Positions 2,430 through 19,169 of a stretch of 20,000 nt of DNA are shown here, piece after piece. Under the pieces are notes generated by a model. That model ran no database searches and was not told the origin of the DNA. It was given only the letters and a program-made list of their open reading frames with translations. The position numbers were made by a program, and so were the translations under genes. The DNA comes from an uncultured virus (IMG/VR IMGVR_UViG_3300010365_000310) (taxonomy: Duplodnaviria > Heunggongvirae > Uroviricota > Caudoviricetes): IMG/VR virus record IMGVR_UViG_3300010365_000310. The stretch is one strand, 5' to 3'. The stretch's first letter is position 1, and every line of letters starts with the position of its first letter.

Positions 2430-2995
2430 TCACACTTAAATTTCTTATAAATCTACTCTGCTTTAAAAAAGGTGAAACTTATACATTCAATAAGGGTGTT
2501 AATTTAGTAGTAGGAGATCAAGGCACTGGTAAATCCACGCTTTTAGATTGTCTGGGCAATTATGATGAAAAGAAAGTTTCAATTAAAAGTACTGGATTGG
2601 AAAGAACCTTATTTTTAGACTTTGAAAAAGATAATCCCAGACTGAATTCTCATTATTCCAATCCATTGGATTTGATGCTAAGATTTCAATCCCATGGTGA
2701 AAGCGCGAAACATTTATTTTCATTCGTAGATCATGAAGATAATAAAGATACTATTATGATACTCGATGAACCAGATATGGCATTATCTATTAGAAGTTGT
2801 CATGATTTAGCTAAACGACTTAAAAAATATCATGAAGAGGGTCGTTGTATTATAATGTCAGCCCACAATCCTATAATCATTTCATCCATGGAAAATGTCT
2901 TATCCGTTGAGCATAAGAAATGGATGACATCAAAGGAATTCATAGAAAGCCATATGAAACCTAAGAAATCTAATACAAAAAAGAAAATTAAGTAA
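2426..2995 (+). CDS. Stand-alone ABC-family ATPase (COG3910-like)
   Basis: Walker A GDQGTGKST, signature-like SHGES, Walker B/D-loop MILDEPDMALS, H-loop SAHNP. Confidence 0.88.
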   Translation: MITLKFLINLLCFKKGETYTFNKGVNLVVGDQGTGKSTLLDCLGNYDEKKVSIKSTGLERTLFLDFEKDNPRLNSHYSNPLDLMLRFQSHGESAKHLFSFVDHEDNKDTIMILDEPDMALSIRSCHDLAKRLKKYHEEGRCIIMSAHNPIIISSMENVLSVEHKKWMTSKEFIESHMKPKKSNTKKKIK

Positions 2996-3000
2996 CATTA

Positions 3001-3027
3001 AAGGGGCCTTGAAATATAGGCCCCTTA
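3001..3027 (+). repeat. Intergenic hairpin element, copy 1 (AAGGGGCCT-TGAAATAT-AGGCCCCTT-A)
   Basis: Perfect 9-bp stem 3001-3009/3018-3026; 26/27 identical to 8906-8932. Confidence 0.95.
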
Positions 3028-3048
3028 ATCTATTTCAAGGAGAATAAA

Positions 3049-3243
3049 ATGCCAGAAGTGAAGGGGCGAGCCGTTAAGGCTATGAAGTTAAGATTGGTTT
3101 GTGAATGCGGTAAAGATATGGTCATGATTGGAACCATTAAAAGAACTGGTACACTCACAAAGTATAAATATTTTTGTGAACCATGTAATAAAATTTACGT
3201 TTGCAACACCAGCTACCCAACAATAGAATACATAGAAGTTTAA
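3049..3243 (+). CDS. Small zinc-ribbon protein
   Basis: AAGGAG SD; CECG...CEPC; its TAA overlaps the TAA of the convergent gene (TTAA 3240-3243). Confidence 0.8.
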   Translation: MPEVKGRAVKAMKLRLVCECGKDMVMIGTIKRTGTLTKYKYFCEPCNKIYVCNTSYPTIEYIEV

Positions 3244-4118
3244 AGAAACTTCTTTAAACTGTGATTGCCCAATTCGGGTAGTCCAGAGAACATCACGGCC
3301 GTAACCTCGGATGCAATAACGAATTCTTGGTATACTAAAGTGTGAGGCTTGATGTTCATCTTTTTATATGCTTCATGACCTGCCCAAAATGCTTTATGAC
3401 TTCTTGGATCTATTCGATCATACATATACTTATCTTCTGTGTAATCAACTAAACTGGATAATCGTTCTAGACCTTCTTGAGATTCCGTCTTTAAAGATTC
3501 ATTATAAATTTTGACTAGTTCTTTGAAACGACCTTCAATTGTTTTATGAGTCTTATCCAAATTCTCCGACTTTATATTTGTCCAGAATTTCAATAGCTTA
3601 TTTTTTAATAGTGGTGTTATAGTATTACCAAAGTATTCTTCAATGAAATATGTATACCATTCTCTTAATGTCTTAATGACATTTGGATCGGATGAGTATG
3701 TTGCGTGATCATGCGCAAATTTGTGTTGATATTCATGAACTATTATGTCATACAATTCTCTTTGCCCGATTGATCCAGATAGATCTCTGATGTTGGTCAT
3801 TAAAACCACAATTCTTTTACCGTCATAAAATCCTAAAATTACTCCACTATAACCAGTAAAGACATTAAAGAATGTATCAAATATATCACCCAACCAAGAT
3901 TCACTGGTGTATGCTGGTATGAGGCTTTTTTTAGAAATAGCGCTTTGAACTTTAGCTATAGCACCTTGATCCATAATCTTATTCAATTTTAAATTTTTAA
4001 GGAACTCTTGATCTAATTCCTTACTCATGTATGCAATAACTTCACCATTCAATTTTAAATCTTTCTTGTTTTCAAACCAACCACTATAGAAAGATTCAAT
4101 AAGTATTTCTTTATTCAT
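3240..4118 (-). CDS. HExxH (zincin-like) protein, possible virion-associated metallopeptidase
   Basis: 292 aa; GGAG SD on - strand; IIVHEYQH motif plus downstream YQEFVIASE; N-terminal ILIES. Confidence 0.65.
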   Translation of the reverse strand: MNKEILIESFYSGWFENKKDLKLNGEVIAYMSKELDQEFLKNLKLNKIMDQGAIAKVQSAISKKSLIPAYTSESWLGDIFDTFFNVFTGYSGVILGFYDGKRIVVLMTNIRDLSGSIGQRELYDIIVHEYQHKFAHDHATYSSDPNVIKTLREWYTYFIEEYFGNTITPLLKNKLLKFWTNIKSENLDKTHKTIEGRFKELVKIYNESLKTESQEGLERLSSLVDYTEDKYMYDRIDPRSHKAFWAGHEAYKKMNIKPHTLVYQEFVIASEVTAVMFSGLPELGNHSLKKFL

Positions 4119-4172
4119 AATATCTCCAAGTGTTGTAATAATAGTTTGTAATTTCTAATGAAGGAGTTTCCC

Positions 4173-5183
4173 ATGAGTATTATCATCGACAATCAACTTC
4201 ACATTTTCAGCTCTTTTAAAATAGATAAGTCACTACCGAAATATTTCAAACCAATTACACAAGATGACAGCCCTGACGATGAAGCGGATAGTGAAAATGG
4301 GTCTACCAAGTTTCGAAGTAGTATCCGATCTCGTTTATCAGAATCATCAAGAATGTTTTGGGATCCAATGGATCCGGATAATAATGGTATTGAAGTAGAG
4401 ATGGAACCTGGTTTGTGGGCAAAAATGAAAGCTTTCTTTTTTGGCCGTTCTCGCAAGAAAGAAATGTCTTTTGATGAAATTAAAAAAGTTTTTACTTTAA
4501 TTGTAAGCAATATGTCTAAAGTGGAAACGATACTTAAAGAAGATGGAGCCACAATCGATAGAAATTATTTCATTGAATCGATCATCAAATACTCTGAATC
4601 CCTAAGGATCATCAAAGAGAATGGACAAATAGCTCTTTATGATAAGATGGTGTCCGAAACACAAACATTCATTTATGAAACTATTTTGAAATCTTCGGGT
4701 TATGCTAATTATATATCAGAAGAAGATTTGATATCATTTTTGACCAGACACCCAAAACGAAGTTATCACGGTTTCCGTTTGGATTGGCTCAAGAATTATA
4801 TCAGGCTTATTCCTAATCATATCATAAAAGCTAAGAAGTGCCTTGATCAATTAAAAATATTCGATAATTATGTAGTGCTTCATTATGATCCAAATGGCAC
4901 AAACTCGGACCTGACCAAAAAAGAAAAAGAAGAAATCAAAAAAGATCCCATTCTTTTTGGTGTATTCCAGAGTAGTAGGCGGTTGTATTTCATAGGTGAC
5001 TGGGTAGATGAAGTTTGCGATTTGAAGTTCAGTGAAATTATGAGTTATTTCAAAAATAATGACCACAAGAGGCTTGAAATTAATGTTGATAAATATAATG
5101 AATTTTTGGGAGATGTTGCTAAGACAATAAATGAATCAGTTAAGAACGAAGATATTCAAGAAATTATAAAAACTTGGTTGTGA
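4173..5183 (+). CDS. Phage-type hypothetical protein
   Basis: AAGGAG SD before ATG 4173; long ORF with C-terminal FDNYVVLHYDP...KDPILFG...RLYFIGDWVDEVCDL block. Confidence 0.85.
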   Translation: MSIIIDNQLHIFSSFKIDKSLPKYFKPITQDDSPDDEADSENGSTKFRSSIRSRLSESSRMFWDPMDPDNNGIEVEMEPGLWAKMKAFFFGRSRKKEMSFDEIKKVFTLIVSNMSKVETILKEDGATIDRNYFIESIIKYSESLRIIKENGQIALYDKMVSETQTFIYETILKSSGYANYISEEDLISFLTRHPKRSYHGFRLDWLKNYIRLIPNHIIKAKKCLDQLKIFDNYVVLHYDPNGTNSDLTKKEKEEIKKDPILFGVFQSSRRLYFIGDWVDEVCDLKFSEIMSYFKNNDHKRLEINVDKYNEFLGDVAKTINESVKNEDIQEIIKTWL

Positions 5184-5229
5184 TATATAATTACCAAAAT
5201 TGAATTTTGATTTAACCTAGCTAGGATAA
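5182..5229 (+). promoter_or_regulatory. Candidate promoter (GATATATAATTA) followed by two palindromes
   Basis: ATATATAATTA resembles 19952-19961 ATATATATTA; CAAAATT-G-AATTTTG at 5195-5209; TTAACCTAG-CTAGGATAA at 5212-5229. Confidence 0.4.
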
Positions 5230-5250
5230 CACCAAGTAAAGAGGCCTAAA

Positions 5251-5538
5251 ATGTTTGACATTCCTTTTCGACCGTGCGTAAATTGTGGATGGTGTTGCAT
5301 GAAAAGACCATGTTCTTTTGGTGAATATGGTTCAAACGGTTGGTGTAAATTTCTTATTAGAAAAGAAGGAGATACTCTTGAAACCTACATCTGTTCAGAA
5401 TTTGATAGAATCAATAAACACCCAGGAAGCAAATATGAGCCAGCCTTTGGGGCCGGTTGTTGTGTAAGCCTCAACACCCAACGACACAAAATCATTCGAG
5501 AAAGAAGAAATCTTAAAAATGTCCCTACTTCTTCTTGA
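5251..5538 (+). CDS. CxxCxxCC (YkgJ-like) metal-binding protein
   Basis: PCVNCGWCCMKRPC...WCKFL...YIC...GAGCC; GAGG SD. Confidence 0.75.
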   Translation: MFDIPFRPCVNCGWCCMKRPCSFGEYGSNGWCKFLIRKEGDTLETYICSEFDRINKHPGSKYEPAFGAGCCVSLNTQRHKIIRERRNLKNVPTSS

Positions 5539-5713
5539 AAGCTTGCAAAGAAATGTTTTATCTCGAGATGTTTGGGTTTTATCATACGCAAGGTTTAGGG
5601 ATCAAGCCATGGAAATGGGCGTCGATGAAGAAACTATACATCAATTTATCATGGGCCTTGAGTCAGCTAGAGGTAAAAGATTTGCTTCAAACCCCATGTC
5701 GAGTATGTTTTAA
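5519..5713 (+). CDS. Small hypothetical protein
   Basis: 64 aa ATG-start ORF ending at the SD of the next gene; preferred over the alternative frame 5535-5723. Confidence 0.5.
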   Translation: MSLLLLESLQRNVLSRDVWVLSYARFRDQAMEMGVDEETIHQFIMGLESARGKRFASNPMSSMF

Positions 5714-5722
5714 GGAGATATA

Positions 5723-6892
5723 ATGACATCCGAAGAATATTTTAATATCATCAAGACCCTGCTCAAAGATAATAAACTTTTTCATCAGCTTTTTTCAAAT
5801 CTTGATATAAAGCACATCATAGAAAGGCATACTGAACCGCATAGATATTATCACACCATTCAACATGTATTGGACTTATTGTATGATATCAAATCAGACA
5901 AGGATATAATAAGAACAGGCCATCAAAAAGAAATGTTGATGGTTGTTGCTCTTTTCCATGATATACATTATGCACCCGTATCTTCAGGAAATAATGAAAA
6001 CAGAAGCTCTGAAATATTTAAAGGTATGATTATATCGGATGGGACTTTTGATATTTCATTAAAGGAAGATATGAGCAACATTATTTGCATCATACGAAAT
6101 ACCAAATATTCATTAGAAGAAGAATTTACATCCCCCGTAGCCAGAGAAGCATTTGATGCTTTTGTTTATTTTGATTTGATAAAACCATTAACTAAAAATA
6201 TGGCTGGTATCATATCGGATAGAATGAAGATCTTTAAAGAATTTCAGAATGTACCAGTGAGCACATTTAGAAGCGTTAGTTTTATTGTATATGAACGACT
6301 AAAAGGATATATCAAAACTAACTACCCCAATCATTATGATTCGGTGGTTAATAATATTAATTCCATTCAAGAATGGTTAAATGATTTCAGACCCAAGGTT
6401 GGATTCTATCCAGGTTCATTTAATCCTTTCCACAAAGGACATATGAATATTCTGGAAAAAGCCGAGAAAGTTTTTGATAAAGTAATAATTGGTTTCGGTA
6501 TGAATCCAGAAAAGAGTGATCATAGAAAAGATGACGGTGTTAGTATATTACCATTTCACGAAAGAAAAAAATATTACGGGCTTTTGACTGATGTTGTGAA
6601 AGATTTAAGAATCGATGGTTGTGATGTAACATTGATCAGAGGTCTAAGGAATGGTTATGACTTAAATTATGAAATGGTTCAGAATAGATACATCAGAGAT
6701 CTTGATCCAAAACTCAATGTGATATTCATACCATCCGATTATGAATATGATTATCTTTCTAGTTCAAGCATAAAGAGTCTTGGTAAGTTAGCCGATATCA
6801 ATGACTATTTACCAAATAAGTATAAGTATGCATTTGAATACTATTCAAGAGAAATCCCGCACCCGGTTTGGAGCAATATTGATGATGTATAA
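5723..6892 (+). CDS. coaD: HD-domain phosphohydrolase fused to phosphopantetheine adenylyltransferase (CoaD)-like domain
   Basis: N-terminal EPHRYYHTIQH...ALFHDIHY...NENRS (COG4339-like HD); C-terminal FYPGSFNPFHKGH, NPEK, LIRGLRNGYDLNYE, LSSSSIK (PPAT motifs); AAGGAG SD. Confidence 0.85.
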   Translation: MTSEEYFNIIKTLLKDNKLFHQLFSNLDIKHIIERHTEPHRYYHTIQHVLDLLYDIKSDKDIIRTGHQKEMLMVVALFHDIHYAPVSSGNNENRSSEIFKGMIISDGTFDISLKEDMSNIICIIRNTKYSLEEEFTSPVAREAFDAFVYFDLIKPLTKNMAGIISDRMKIFKEFQNVPVSTFRSVSFIVYERLKGYIKTNYPNHYDSVVNNINSIQEWLNDFRPKVGFYPGSFNPFHKGHMNILEKAEKVFDKVIIGFGMNPEKSDHRKDDGVSILPFHERKKYYGLLTDVVKDLRIDGCDVTLIRGLRNGYDLNYEMVQNRYIRDLDPKLNVIFIPSDYEYDYLSSSSIKSLGKLADINDYLPNKYKYAFEYYSREIPHPVWSNIDDV

Positions 6893-7238
6893 AATATTCA
6901 ATCTATTCCTCTTGGTTTTGATACTTTGCCTTTTGGTAGTGAACTTGCATACTTTGGTAGGAATTGAAAATGGTTTGATTAAAGAACCCGTTAAAGAGAT
7001 TGTAGAAGTTAAGGATTTCTTTATACTTTCAAAATCTTTTATACCAGAGTTAACTTCAAATCGGAAACATCTTTTGGTAATTGATAACAATGAGGATTTG
7101 CTTCAGATCGTCAATACTTGCAAGAATATTCGAATTGATTACGCTAACACTTTTGTGATTAAACTTAGCAATAATGAAATAGTAAATTATCAGATTGACG
7201 AAATATTACTCAACGAATCAAAGGAATCAATCAAATGA
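6885..7238 (+). CDS. Membrane-anchored hypothetical protein
   Basis: GGAG SD, ATG at 6882 or 6885; N-terminal hydrophobic IFNLFLLVLILCLLVV. Confidence 0.7.
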   Translation: MYKIFNLFLLVLILCLLVVNLHTLVGIENGLIKEPVKEIVEVKDFFILSKSFIPELTSNRKHLLVIDNNEDLLQIVNTCKNIRIDYANTFVIKLSNNEIVNYQIDEILLNESKESIK

Positions 7239-7912
7239 TGAGAATCGAAATTGATCTTTCATACGAATCAACCCTCGAAAATGATGCTTGTGTTGTACTC
7301 AGTCCTATCTTTGAAATGACCGTTATACGAGAAGGCAAAAAAGATGTAATTTTAGAAGGTGAGCTCAATGAATTAGAAAGCATCCATTCTGATAAGCTGA
7401 CTGATATTGAAAATGAAAAGCTTATGGAATGGGCCAAAAGTAACTACAGCAATTTAAAACGAACACTCATGAGAGACTATCAAGAACTATTCAGAACTGA
7501 TGGTAGTATCTCAGATTGGGCGGAAATTGAATTGTATGATGAGATATATGAAGAAGATGATGGTGGAACCAACCCCGAAATACCTGAAGGTTATGGACAG
7601 GTGTGCGTGATTTGTGGTATGTACATGGGAAAAGATTCCGATATAACGGACTTCGAAAAAATGATTAAAGAAACATTTGATATAGAAGCAAAATATCTTT
7701 GCATGGTACATACATACCCGGATAGAGATTCTTCGGGTAGTAAAGTTGATGGCACCGGTAGTAGATGTGATACATTTTTTACAATTAAAGATTCGGATGT
7801 TGCAAAATTTGCCGTACCGAGATTGCAATATGGTATTAGATGGCTTGAGGATGTATTGAATAATAATCCAAGCATATACCCAGCAAGAATTTCAAAGTTG
7901 AGGAAATGGTAA
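7235..7912 (+). CDS. Hypothetical protein (acidic N-half, likely two modules)
   Basis: 225 aa; ATGA coupling; C-terminal FAVPRLQYGIRWLEDV. Confidence 0.8.
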   Translation: MMRIEIDLSYESTLENDACVVLSPIFEMTVIREGKKDVILEGELNELESIHSDKLTDIENEKLMEWAKSNYSNLKRTLMRDYQELFRTDGSISDWAEIELYDEIYEEDDGGTNPEIPEGYGQVCVICGMYMGKDSDITDFEKMIKETFDIEAKYLCMVHTYPDRDSSGSKVDGTGSRCDTFFTIKDSDVAKFAVPRLQYGIRWLEDVLNNNPSIYPARISKLRKW

Positions 7913-8361
7913 TGGACGAATTAACTAAAAAAGATGAAATCATTAATGATTTAAATTTGCAAATCGAACGAGGTCTCGATGAGCAAATTAAACTCAGAGA
8001 AAGTAATGCTGAGTTGACAAGACAATGCAAAAGTCTTGAATACGCTCTAAATGGATTTTTCAGGGATGGGTTGGATTCAATACGAAGAATCATCGAAAAG
8101 AAAACTAATGATTTCCTATCATCAAGAACAATTATGGATGTCAAATATATGGTCAGCAGGAATGACGATGCTAGACTCTTTATGGTTTTCGATGATGATG
8201 TTTATAATCATGATGATTTCAAAAAAAGATACGTCTTATTCTCTGATTCCGACTTCACCCCGCAGGTTATGGAACGAGAAAAATTTCAAGAAATGTTTAC
8301 TAAGACCAAAGATCTAACCCCAGAAGGAAAGAGACGACTTGACGACAAATATAAAGGGTAA
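7912..8361 (+). CDS. Hypothetical protein with N-terminal coiled coil
   Basis: TAATG overlap and GAGGA SD; heptad-like LNLQIERGLDEQIKLRESNAELTRQCKSLE. Confidence 0.78.
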   Translation: MDELTKKDEIINDLNLQIERGLDEQIKLRESNAELTRQCKSLEYALNGFFRDGLDSIRRIIEKKTNDFLSSRTIMDVKYMVSRNDDARLFMVFDDDVYNHDDFKKRYVLFSDSDFTPQVMEREKFQEMFTKTKDLTPEGKRRLDDKYKG

Positions 8362-8899
8362 TAAGAATGTATTCTTTTGGATCGTCTTTAATGTTGAAGG
8401 ATCAACTGAGCCAATAAAAATATTACCATATGGTTGGTGTTATTGGACTGGTATTGAACATCATGGTATGACCATTATGAAAGTATTTTCATTTGGTTAT
8501 TACCGTGATAAAAAAGATATGCTAAACGATATTTTAAATTATTGGCCAAATTCCAAACAGATTACAATTAAATGTATACGGCATTCAAAGGATCCCGAAC
8601 AAGAACGAATACTCTGTTCAGCTATCTATATTGATGATGGTATTGTTTACAGTGATCCAAGAGTCTTACCCAGCAACAAGAAAAGTGGTATGGTTGTATG
8701 CGGACAAAGGCACCATAACTGCTATGGCATACTTTACCAATTTATGCAAGATAAAGTTAATATACTTAAATCGGAAGAAGGTTTCTTAACATCGAAGGGA
8801 AATTTTCTAACAAGAAGCGAAGCTAAAGAATTAGCATTTAAAATAGGTCAAATAACTAAAACCTCATCCACAACATTAACTAGCGAAGATTTGTGGTGA
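8339..8899 (+). CDS. Phage-type hypothetical protein
   Basis: C-terminal ILCSAI...GQRHHNC...EGFLTSKGNFLTRSEA...LTSEDLW, a pattern I recall from phage proteins of unknown function; TTG start uncertain. Confidence 0.72.
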   Translation: MTTNIKGNKNVFFWIVFNVEGSTEPIKILPYGWCYWTGIEHHGMTIMKVFSFGYYRDKKDMLNDILNYWPNSKQITIKCIRHSKDPEQERILCSAIYIDDGIVYSDPRVLPSNKKSGMVVCGQRHHNCYGILYQFMQDKVNILKSEEGFLTSKGNFLTRSEAKELAFKIGQITKTSSTTLTSEDLW

Positions 8900-8905
8900 T
8901 TTCTC

Positions 8906-8932
8906 AAGGGGCCTTGAAATACAGGCCCCTTA
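8906..8932 (+). repeat. Intergenic hairpin element, copy 2 (AAGGGGCCT-TGAAATAC-AGGCCCCTT-A)
   Basis: Perfect 9-bp stem 8906-8914/8923-8931; followed by ATTTTAT and the AAGGAGGT SD. Confidence 0.95.
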
Positions 8933-8949
8933 TTTTATAAGGAGGTGTA

Positions 8950-10107
8950 ATGAGAAACGAGATTAAGTCAAAGAAGGGTGACAAAATAGATCGAGAGTTG
9001 AGGCTTCAAAAAGCGGTCAATATTTTAAATACAATCGATAGAGATAAGAAACCAACTAAAAATGATATTAAGAAAAAATTGACTGGATCTTTGTGTAAAG
9101 AACTTGAATCGCTTTTCATTAGAAATCCAGATGAGATTTCTTTTAAATCTCATAATATAGAAAAACAAGTTTTGGAGCTTTTGAAGCATACATTCTGTAA
9201 ATATCCCGTACCAGAATTTATGTTGCATCATTTTCCATATGTAATATTTCCAGCACCAATACGATTCACTTCTAAAATTGTAGTACCTCTAGAAATTAAA
9301 ACCAGGCATGAAGATGATAACTCTGGTATATATCAAGAAATGTTTCAAATCATCACAACCGGTGGGTCTCTTCGTAAATATTTGAAGGGTACTCTAACCG
9401 CAAAAGAATGTGCCATTTTTCTTACATTAAAAAACAATAAAACAATTGGTTATAATATTTGGTTATCTAGATTGATTGCTTCGGATGTACCAAAGAAATT
9501 ATATGACAAGGTTATCAATAGGTTCCTGAATAACTACAATTCCATATTTTATCAGTTTGATGATCAATCATTATTTCGTTTCATTAAAAAGTATCACTCC
9601 GAGTTGATGCAAGATGATATAGATTCAAATGATATTATAGAGATTTTGGATTATATTCAATATGAAATGAGAAGGAATGATAAATATACTCTTAATGGTA
9701 GAACTTATGAATCAATTAGACGAGCTTCGAATGAGTGGCATGAAGCAGAAGCTCTCAGAAAAGAAGCCGCATCTAATCTTTCTTGGCCAGCCATTGAAGA
9801 AGAAAGTCGTGTAATAACTATTAATGATGTTGATTATAAGTTTATTGAATTATTGAATTCAAGAGCTTTATTCATTGAAGGTCAAACACAAAGGCATTGT
9901 GTCGGTTCTTATGCCTATAGATGCAACAACGGGCAGTGTAGTATATTTTCAATGAGATATCCAGGTGGCCGAATAACGATCGAAGTATCTCATGGTAGAA
10001 TAATGCAAACTAAAGGTAAACGAAATACCAAACCAGATTCACATGAAAAAGCAGCTATTAAAAAATGGGCTGAAGGAAGATATAATATTACCAAGGAGTG
10101 TTTATGA
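8950..10107 (+). CDS. PcfJ-domain protein
   Basis: SNEWHE...LFIEGQTQRHCVGSY...SIFSMR...RITIEV...MQTKGKRNTKP; strong AAGGAGGT SD. Confidence 0.85.
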   Translation: MRNEIKSKKGDKIDRELRLQKAVNILNTIDRDKKPTKNDIKKKLTGSLCKELESLFIRNPDEISFKSHNIEKQVLELLKHTFCKYPVPEFMLHHFPYVIFPAPIRFTSKIVVPLEIKTRHEDDNSGIYQEMFQIITTGGSLRKYLKGTLTAKECAIFLTLKNNKTIGYNIWLSRLIASDVPKKLYDKVINRFLNNYNSIFYQFDDQSLFRFIKKYHSELMQDDIDSNDIIEILDYIQYEMRRNDKYTLNGRTYESIRRASNEWHEAEALRKEAASNLSWPAIEEESRVITINDVDYKFIELLNSRALFIEGQTQRHCVGSYAYRCNNGQCSIFSMRYPGGRITIEVSHGRIMQTKGKRNTKPDSHEKAAIKKWAEGRYNITKECL

Positions 10108-10921: not shown

Positions 10922-11222
10922 AATTTCTCTTAAAAGAGATTGCTCTACTTGCCGTTGGGCTTTGCCATCTCTTATTGCCAAGATATACTGCTCTGAAAAA
11001 AGAAAGCATAAGTCATCATGTAATGTCGGTGGTGGGTGTAATTCATGGAGTGATTTCTCACTTAAAACCGAGGAATTGGAAAACGCCATTCTTAATAATG
11101 TTCGCACTCCATCATGGCATGAACGATTATGTTTTGAAAAAGGTCGTGAATATGAACGGAATAGACTTATGAGACTATTTGAAAAAGAAAGAAAGAAGGG
11201 TAATCAAGATGTTGGAAACTGA
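10902..11222 (+). CDS. Cys-rich hypothetical protein
   Basis: AAGGAG SD; CSTCRW...YC...C...GCNSW. Confidence 0.7.
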   Translation: MRKGIIEISLKRDCSTCRWALPSLIAKIYCSEKRKHKSSCNVGGGCNSWSDFSLKTEELENAILNNVRTPSWHERLCFEKGREYERNRLMRLFEKERKKGNQDVGN

Positions 11223-11727
11223 TACTCACATTTATTTCTGGGGTGGATACCTATCTCAATGGTTTAAATCAAGATTTAACGCATACATTGATGATTACTT
11301 TGGACACGTAACTTTCGAAACTGCCGAGCAATACATGATGTTTATGAAAGCTCATGTTTTCAAAGATAAAAAAGCCATGTTGGAGTTGATGAGTTGTTCG
11401 GATCCTAAGAAGTGCAAAGAAATTGGCCGTAGAGTTCAAGGCTTCGATCAAGAAATTTGGGACAAGGTCAGTTTTGATATTGTAGTTAATGGCAACTTTC
11501 ATAAGTTTCAGCAAAACTTTATACTCTATGATAAGCTTTATGCCACCGGTGATAAGATCTTGGTTGAAGCTTCTCCATATGATAGAATATGGGGCGTCGG
11601 TTTAAAAGAAGATGATCCTAGAATATTGGATGATAAAAATTGGCTAGGGGAAAATCGTTTGGGTAAAGCATTAATGAGTGCCAGAACCATGCTTAAACAA
11701 TTCGGTTCTCCAAAGGGAAGACGATGA
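11209..11727 (+). CDS. NADAR family (YbiA-like) N-glycosidase
   Basis: LSQWF, FETAEQYMMFMKA, KEIGRRVQGFD, KFQQN, LVEASPYDRIWGVGL, WLGENRLGKALM; start placed at ATG 11209. Confidence 0.93.
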   Translation: MLETDTHIYFWGGYLSQWFKSRFNAYIDDYFGHVTFETAEQYMMFMKAHVFKDKKAMLELMSCSDPKKCKEIGRRVQGFDQEIWDKVSFDIVVNGNFHKFQQNFILYDKLYATGDKILVEASPYDRIWGVGLKEDDPRILDDKNWLGENRLGKALMSARTMLKQFGSPKGRR

Positions 11728-14136: not shown

Positions 14137-14176
14137 TGGGGTCGGGTGCATTAATTTGTGCTCGACCCCATTTTTT
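14137..14176 (+). terminator. Intrinsic terminator, UUAAUU loop
   Basis: 14-bp stem TGGGGTCGGGTGCA/TGTGCTCGACCCCA (3 G-U pairs), loop TTAATT, then T6. Confidence 0.85.
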
Positions 14177-19117: not shown

Positions 19118-19136
19118 GGAAATGATTAAAACGAAC

Positions 19137-19169
19137 AAGGCTAGATTAATTTCTAGCCTTATTTTTTTT
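19137..19169 (+). terminator. Intrinsic terminator, UUAAUU loop
   Basis: AAGGCTAGA-TTAATT-TCTAGCCTT then A+T8; ends the long + strand gene run. Confidence 0.92.

Follow-up and report, generated by a model that had tools for sequence, protein, structure and literature searches.

The window analysed in the present study, a 20,000-nucleotide stretch of DNA from an uncultured virus (IMG/VR record IMGVR_UViG_3300010365_000310), carries on its + strand two copies of a 27-nt hairpin element, at 3001-3027 and 8906-8932, each of them lying between two co-directional genes. On balance, the element is probably a duplicated intercistronic terminator or attenuator. According to this reading, each copy would fold in the + strand RNA immediately upon transcription, forming a 9-bp hairpin of about -17 kcal/mol right after the upstream stop codon, and would halt part of the upstream transcription. 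The 3' hairpin left behind may protect the upstream mRNA, and the fraction of transcripts reading through would carry the next gene with its Shine-Dalgarno sequence (SD) remaining free, the outcome being a step-down or gate of expression within a long operon and no translational switch. The shared stem and loop would go back to one origin, by duplication or cassette exchange, and not to recognition of the loop. A previous sequence-only reading had seen here a cis-acting hairpin working at the RNA level and repeated between co-directional genes, and had made sequestration of the SD its headline mechanism; we keep the former and give up the latter. The kind of element is already known, and its sequence family is undescribed in Rfam, phage records, IMG/VR and the literature searched.

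Copy 1 reads AAGGGGCCTTGAAATATAGGCCCCTTA and copy 2 AAGGGGCCTTGAAATACAGGCCCCTTA, i.e., the shared form on the + strand is AAGGGGCCT-TGAAATAY-AGGCCCCTTA, whose sole mismatch falls in the loop (T3017 / C8922). This variable base adjoins the closing pair, and the whole stem together with the other seven of the eight loop bases is identical between the copies. When extended without gaps, the two copies match over 33 nt with 91% identity (3001-3033 / 8906-8938), beyond which the flanks are unrelated; the proteins flanking copy 1 and those flanking copy 2, compared in search of a duplication wider than the repeat, have no meaningful similarity. With up to three mismatches allowed on both strands, the motif matches exactly twice in the 20 kb, against a mean of 0.00 matches in dinucleotide-preserving shuffles, none of which (0/200) held two. 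The DNA of the window lies on metagenome contigs of about 75-79 kb; it is matched identically in L016 and with one base different in L013, and an exact-pattern scan of the 75-kb contig carrying this DNA returned the 22-mer GGGGCCTTGAAATACAGGCCCC at two places only. The placement is as regular as the sequence. At copy 1, the stop codon TAA (2993-2995) is followed by 5 nt, the hairpin, 21 nt and the ATG at 3049 of a gene for a 64-aa protein; at copy 2, TGA (8897-8899) is followed by 6 nt, the hairpin, 17 nt and the ATG at 8950 of a gene for a PcfJ-domain protein. Seven + strand intergenic gaps of at least 39 nt exist in the window, and the hairpins occupy two of them. Both the repeat with its one loop mismatch and unrelated flanks and the spacing proposed beforehand (5-6 nt after a stop codon, about 20 nt before an ATG) are borne out by the sequence and, for the repeat, by the shuffles, and the two-copy, intercistronic hairpin repeat is confirmed as real.

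The hairpin of copy 1 (3001-3027) consists of a 9-bp stem, AAGGGGCCT paired to AGGCCCCTT, and an 8-nt loop, TGAAATAT, followed by an A; that of copy 2 (8906-8932) has the same stem, the 8-nt loop TGAAATAC and again a following A. Six of the nine pairs are G-C in each, and the folding energies come to -17.3 kcal/mol for copy 1 and -16.5 kcal/mol for copy 2. Set in its 56-nt context, copy 1 gives z = -3.19, with equally good folds in 1/200 shuffles, and copy 2, in a 53-nt context, z = -1.89 with 10/200. The hairpin is present in the minimum free energy (MFE) structure and the eight best suboptimal structures of both copies, as well as in the centroid. Behind it, the 3' extension of the repeat is ATCTAT in copy 1 (3028-3033), a weak U-rich tail, and TTTTAT in copy 2 (8933-8938), which with the TTA before it makes up the U-tract TTATTTTAT; the copy 1 tail as a whole, TTAATCTATTTC, is clearly weaker than this. 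The two SDs that come next, AAGGAG of the 64-aa gene (3037-3042) and AAGGAGG of the PcfJ-domain gene (8939-8945), show unpaired probabilities of 0.43-0.97 and 0.59-0.97, respectively.

Likeness to terminators is what gives this hairpin its probable meaning. Both copies appear among the sites of a terminator-like scan, which found 16 in the window against 8.0 +/- 3.0 in shuffles. Scored with a tail/hairpin score after d'Aubenton-Carafa, which serves here for relative ranking only, the strongest of the sites compared is a 14-bp terminator with TTTTTT at 14137-14170 (score 31), which closes the gene run starting after copy 2. The core of copy 2 follows with 3.0, within the range of two other terminator-like hairpins of the window with clear T-runs, namely 336-361 (-2.8) and the two-way hairpin 19134-19163 between convergent genes (-5.5, scored as 19137). 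Copy 2 has, unlike copy 1, a fair U-tract (TTATTTTAT), comparable to those of two other terminators of the window, and looks like them. The core of copy 1 scores -12.8, in agreement with the earlier remark that it is without a proper U-tract (AATCTATTTC), and because of this poor tract copy 1 would, judged by its sequence, be no more than a terminator that is weak or needs the help of a factor. Read on the minus strand, the same hairpin has TTTAATGTTACTTAATTTTC behind it and could thus also end transcription of the convergent gene 3240-4118. The stem is found elsewhere, too: AAGGGGCCT-N8-AGGCCCCTT with other loops occurs at 12 IMG/VR loci, representing 8 distinct sequences with unrelated flanks, several of them between A- and T-runs, and the stem form is therefore that of a generic terminator stem.

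The gaps of 21 and 17 nt between hairpin and start codon leave no room for a promoter, and none of the 60 promoter-like sites listed for the window, beside which 56 weaker ones stand, falls within 2950-3049 or 8850-8950; thus, the downstream genes should be read from transcripts that pass the hairpin. A promoter inside the hairpin, with TTGAAA of the loop as the -35 element and TATAAG or TATTTC as the -10 element, was considered and rejected: both -10 candidates are without the final T and overlap the SD. Since the PcfJ-domain gene and the gap-free run that it heads, up to 14137, need transcripts through copy 2, the hairpins can act only as partial or conditional stops. A site just behind a stop codon is already familiar from other terminators, and this nearness may offer a ready mechanism for such leakiness where transcription and translation are coupled: in E. 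coli, according to one report (PMC4824070), moving the stop codon to 5 bp before the terminator tR2 lowered termination from ~90% to <10% by way of the terminating ribosome.

Public sequencing runs (X2, X4, X5 and X17) were compared with the window as well, in the form of low-depth contigs, so that joints missing from them are weak evidence. Copy 1 is spanned by one metatranscriptome contig (X17 record 1, 2885-3065), extending 116 and 38 nt beyond it, which fits read-through only weakly because such libraries can contain DNA; the stretches that lack RNA cover, copy 2 in X17 among them, carry no weight as evidence. At copy 2, X2 and X5 diverge from the window by about 5%. Around copy 1, variant contigs (X2 record 9 and X17 record 1) show changes at 2997 and 3046, an insertion after 2983 and a deletion at 3000; within 3001-3045 no change is listed in these two contigs, which at ~1% divergence is not significant. 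Elsewhere, at 6858-6993, 7926 and 8365-8601, strain variants carry unrelated segments of similar size or diverge from that point onward, a mosaicism located at or near gene boundaries.

Several observations weigh against the terminator or attenuator interpretation, and we set them together here. The U-tract of copy 1 is, as said, poor. If copy 2 terminated efficiently, some 12 genes lying downstream, which lack their own promoter, would be silenced. Terminators need no particular loop, though seven of the eight loop bases are identical here; two copies cannot separate recent duplication from selection on the loop. The four public runs consist of contigs, which cannot display RNA 3' ends. Furthermore, the + strand is purine-rich across the window (A 35.6%, G 19.1%, 54.7% A+G), and a purine-rich coding strand has been tied, in a 2026 paper (PMC13323073), to hosts whose RNA polymerase outruns the ribosomes; in such a runaway-transcription host the idea of gating by the ribosome would not apply. 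Finally, a 10-nt complement between the copy 1 hairpin and the following SD region, to which we return below, is improbable by chance and finds no explanation in a terminator.

Among the alternatives, one that we consider unlikely, yet worth keeping in sight, is that the hairpin is a sequence-specific RNA operator whose GAAA-containing loop is read by a phage or host protein controlling read-through, processing or downstream translation; the first candidate for such a reader would be the zinc-ribbon-like 64-aa protein encoded next to copy 1. Seven of eight loop positions are the same amid unrelated flanks, the sole variable one adjoins the closing pair, and the SD lies in the same distance class from both copies, all of which would suit a loop read by a protein; a protein-bound operator or a processing site is no more than conceivable. 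In addition, a bacterial look-alike of the hairpin, described below, has a variant copy in which loop positions 1 and 6 are altered jointly (U,U to G,C) with GAAA kept, a joint change that, as a single event, could reflect a GAAA tetraloop with positions 1 and 6 as its closing pair. Against this stand the impossibility of parting selection from recent duplication with two copies, a zinc-ribbon protein without informative relatives, and a motif that has no further copy in the 20 kb at up to three mismatches and whose exact 22-mer occurs just twice in the 75-kb contig. Hairpins with GAAAT-type loops, sought across the window, turned up only as weak AT-rich stems inside genes. Comparison with Rfam, which the sequence-only reading had called for, likewise yielded no family: the Rfam 15 scan of the window gave five matches at E <=10, none at either copy and none at gathering score.

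Nor did the more specific suggestion of a boxB-like antitermination site survive in the features compared. Lambda boxB is a 5-bp stem with a GNRA-like pentaloop, and boxA lies a few nt upstream of it; the stem here has 9 bp and the loop 8 nt (UGAAAUAY), with no boxA-like box upstream. Matches to a boxA-like motif number eight in the window at one mismatch, against 8.9 expected, and none lies within 100 nt upstream of the copies. No N-like protein was identified. If the loop nevertheless proved to be read by a protein, the element would be a new and very compact phage RNA operator.

To about the same low degree we consider that the hairpin acts at the DNA level, either as a linker for modular exchange similar to the stem-loop part of PeSL (promoter-early stem-loop) cassettes of T4-type phages or as a tiny mobile palindrome, the two copies bounding a block of 5.9 kb, mostly orphan genes, that recombination between them could exchange or delete. 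PeSL stem-loops, as two papers describe them (PMC2839356; PMC4122927), are typically GGGG...CCCC, are terminators and mediate recombination between copies. In the window, direct repeats of 27-33 nt do flank 3028-8905, this block holds the sole minus-strand gene of the first 19 kb, most of its genes are without a family match, and the strain variants of the genome are mosaic. However, their breakpoints (6858/6993, 7926 and 8365/8601) lie away from the hairpins, none of the four joints listed connects the copies, and the 21 loose ends listed, out of 26, are all outside the hairpins. The promoter that completes a PeSL is also missing next to the hairpins, and the copies number only two; target-site duplications were looked for around both and not found, the bases flanking the two copies being different.

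Somewhat less likely still is that a small duplication left the second copy behind as a neutral remnant, itself functionless. The mere two copies would suit such an origin. Both, however, occupy the same precise position, with a stop codon 5-6 nt ahead of them and an SD just behind, in the same orientation and in two of the seven gaps, and random insertion would rarely land in this way twice.

Beyond the virus, the 22-mer GGGGCCTTGAAATACAGGCCCC was also met in four other metagenome contigs and one metagenome-assembled genome (MAG), all of ~52% GC and all of one lineage. There it makes up the tip, itself invariant, of a conserved hairpin that is longer and stands twice, once behind a VWA-like gene and once behind the gene that follows it (sites at 1461-1560 in L014, L018, L021 and L022, at 1413-1512 in L017 and, on the minus strand, at 1166-1265 in L015). 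The bacterial copies lie 1944-1948 nt apart, compensatory change is seen to some extent in their base helix, and the tip equals the 22-mer of window copy 2; the MAG has two copies, the second with the loop TGGAAACACA. Among 41 genomes, i.e., the MAG and its relatives, the pattern is present in one, and Rfam gave no match to the surroundings of the bacterial hairpin. Comparison of the window DNA with the MAG returned the hairpin itself (E 0.024) and 14 short matches at E >=1, which provides no host link. With 21 specified bases, 596 billion bases searched on both strands and equal base frequencies, some 0.27 chance hits are expected, and more where the sequence has the form of a hairpin, so that a single independent lineage does not exceed chance, and the sharing of the 22-mer with a bacterial operon is probably a coincidence. 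We accordingly give little credence to the idea that the hairpin GGGGCCU-UGAAAUAY-AGGCCCC is the recognition module of a trans-acting polarity factor, a cellular control hairpin that the phage copies or shares and that its 64-aa protein possibly reads.

The least credible of the explanations is the one with which the element was first presented, namely that the hairpin alternates with a helix in which the SD is paired to the 5' arm and loop (copy 1) or to the 3' arm (copy 2), turning downstream translation off. The complementarity behind it is real: CCTTGAAATA (3007-3016) is the exact reverse complement of TATTTCAAGG (3031-3040), which shares AAGG, the opening four bases, with the SD and is found at copy 1 only, and CCTTAT (8928-8933) can pair with ATAAGG (8937-8942), allowing a 6-bp alternative helix at copy 2. 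The 10-nt complement has a chance probability of ~0.0006 (random draws with a constant SD gave it 11 times in 20,000), and complements to the hairpin in 37 other ribosome-binding regions of the window reach 3-7 nt. The energetics and the ensemble pairing probabilities nevertheless speak against the mechanism. The alternative helices reach -9.7 (copy 1) and -4.3 kcal/mol (copy 2) against -17.3 and -16.5 kcal/mol for the hairpins, a lead of 7.6 and 12.2 kcal/mol, and copy 1 structures in which the alternative helix is enforced attain -11.8 at best against -20.4 for the MFE. In the partition function, the computation of which had been proposed along with the switch, no base of the SD pairs with a base of the hairpin at a probability above 7e-5 in copy 1 or 5e-3 in copy 2 (151-nt contexts), the SD bases being mostly unpaired. 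The hairpin would, moreover, form before the rival helix, being transcribed ahead of the proposed partner; with energetics and order of transcription both favouring the hairpin, a spontaneous switch is unsupported, and switching would require a factor that melts a stem of -17 kcal/mol. The copies would also need different partners, and since copy 2 offers 5-6 nt, inside the chance range of 3-7 nt, and with another partner, the 10-nt complement is no feature of the repeat. At copy 1 it may have arisen neutrally, the loop having served as template in a quasi-palindrome mutation.

As for the genomic setting, the window has a GC content of 31-37%, about 33%, and tight, often overlapping + strand genes with strong SDs. 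Upstream of copy 1 lies a gene for a small P-loop or ABC/SMC-like ATPase of 189 aa (2426-2995, + strand), and downstream the gene for the 64-aa CxC...CxxC zinc-ribbon-like protein (3049-3243, + strand), whose nearest protein-atlas clusters are viral hypothetical proteins. Copy 2 is preceded by a gene for a 186-aa protein of phrog_839, a family of unknown function (8339-8899, + strand), and followed by that for the 385-aa PcfJ-domain protein (8950-10107, + strand), from which the gap-free run leads up to the terminator at 14137-14170. Between the copies, the minus-strand gene 3240-4118, the only one of that strand in the first 19 kb, converges with the 64-aa gene with a 4-nt overlap and encodes a 292-aa protein that has a HEYQH (HExxH-type) motif and no family match. 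The gene 4158-5183 encodes a 341-aa protein matching PHROG 10081 (phrog_10081, "transposase", E 1.8e-13), a label that finds no support in Pfam or NCBIfam and that we regard as doubtful. A 389-aa protein (5723-6892) combines an N-terminal phosphohydrolase-like PHROG match with a C-terminal cytidylyltransferase/NMN-adenylyltransferase-like domain, and near its gene stands that of a NADAR-domain protein (11179-11727); the two together hint at NAD or ADP-ribose metabolism, with a possible link to counter-defence. Most other genes of the window have no match or belong to PHROG families of unknown function.

At 352-1536, a gene for a PurA-like adenylosuccinate synthetase is found (PurA models, E 2e-31). 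The PurZ model reaches E 4e-8 there, below the cut-off, and the PHROG family bears a PurZ-type name. Distant relatives of this protein and of the PcfJ-domain protein occur in large phages, for which reason we call the source phage-like. Close relatives were sought by megablast and blastn against phages, with none found, and the exact motif has no match in IMG/VR. When the PcfJ-domain protein and the 389-aa protein were each used alone to look for related loci, none was found. Identity to the nearest PcfJ-domain homologues, which lie on short contigs, is 40-42%, and a PcfJ-domain profile search brought up 23 IMG/VR loci at 25-45% identity, of which one (L045) has a clear GC-rich terminator-type hairpin directly before the PcfJ-domain gene, as far as crude start calls tell; these loci are too distant to bear on the hairpin of the window.

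Compared with known systems, a lambda-type nut site resembles the element in being a short hairpin upstream of phage genes that need read-through. The loop beginning with GAAA and the U-A closing pair are also shared with it. The 9-bp stem and 8-nt loop are unlike it, as is the fact that the hairpin here is itself terminator-like. REP/BIME and MITE-like repeats have in common with the element a short intergenic palindrome just after genes, and they differ in that the window has two copies in 20 kb, no target duplications and no associated transposase. Intrinsic terminators serving as operon attenuators or 3' protectors share the GC-rich stem-loop after a stop codon, the U-rich tail, which is clear in copy 2, and, to judge from the passage on tR2 cited above (PMC4824070), the closeness to the stop codon; the poor U-tract of copy 1, the location of both copies in gene runs with no promoter behind the hairpin and the shared loop set the element apart from them. 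Should the copies indeed be partial terminators, they would be a further instance in which large phages use one short hairpin of the terminator type repeatedly to graduate expression within long operons, which would aid the annotation of an uncultured genome and alter no concept.

The closest described system is PeSL of T4-type phages. As portrayed in the same papers (PMC2839356; PMC4122927), it has repeated intergenic GGGG...CCCC stem-loops that end or attenuate transcription, and it resembles our element, whose stem is GGGGCC/GGCCCC, in this and in the association with orphan genes of a large phage genome; the copies here might likewise act as patches of homology. Unlike PeSL, the hairpins of the window are accompanied by neither a sigma-70-like promoter nor an AT-rich block, only 17-21 nt separating hairpin and ATG, and they are present in two copies, without a joint between them among those listed for the four runs and without sequence relation to T4-type phages. 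If the copies were nevertheless exchange points of the 5.9-kb orphan block, modular shuffling of the PeSL kind would reach beyond the T4-type phages.

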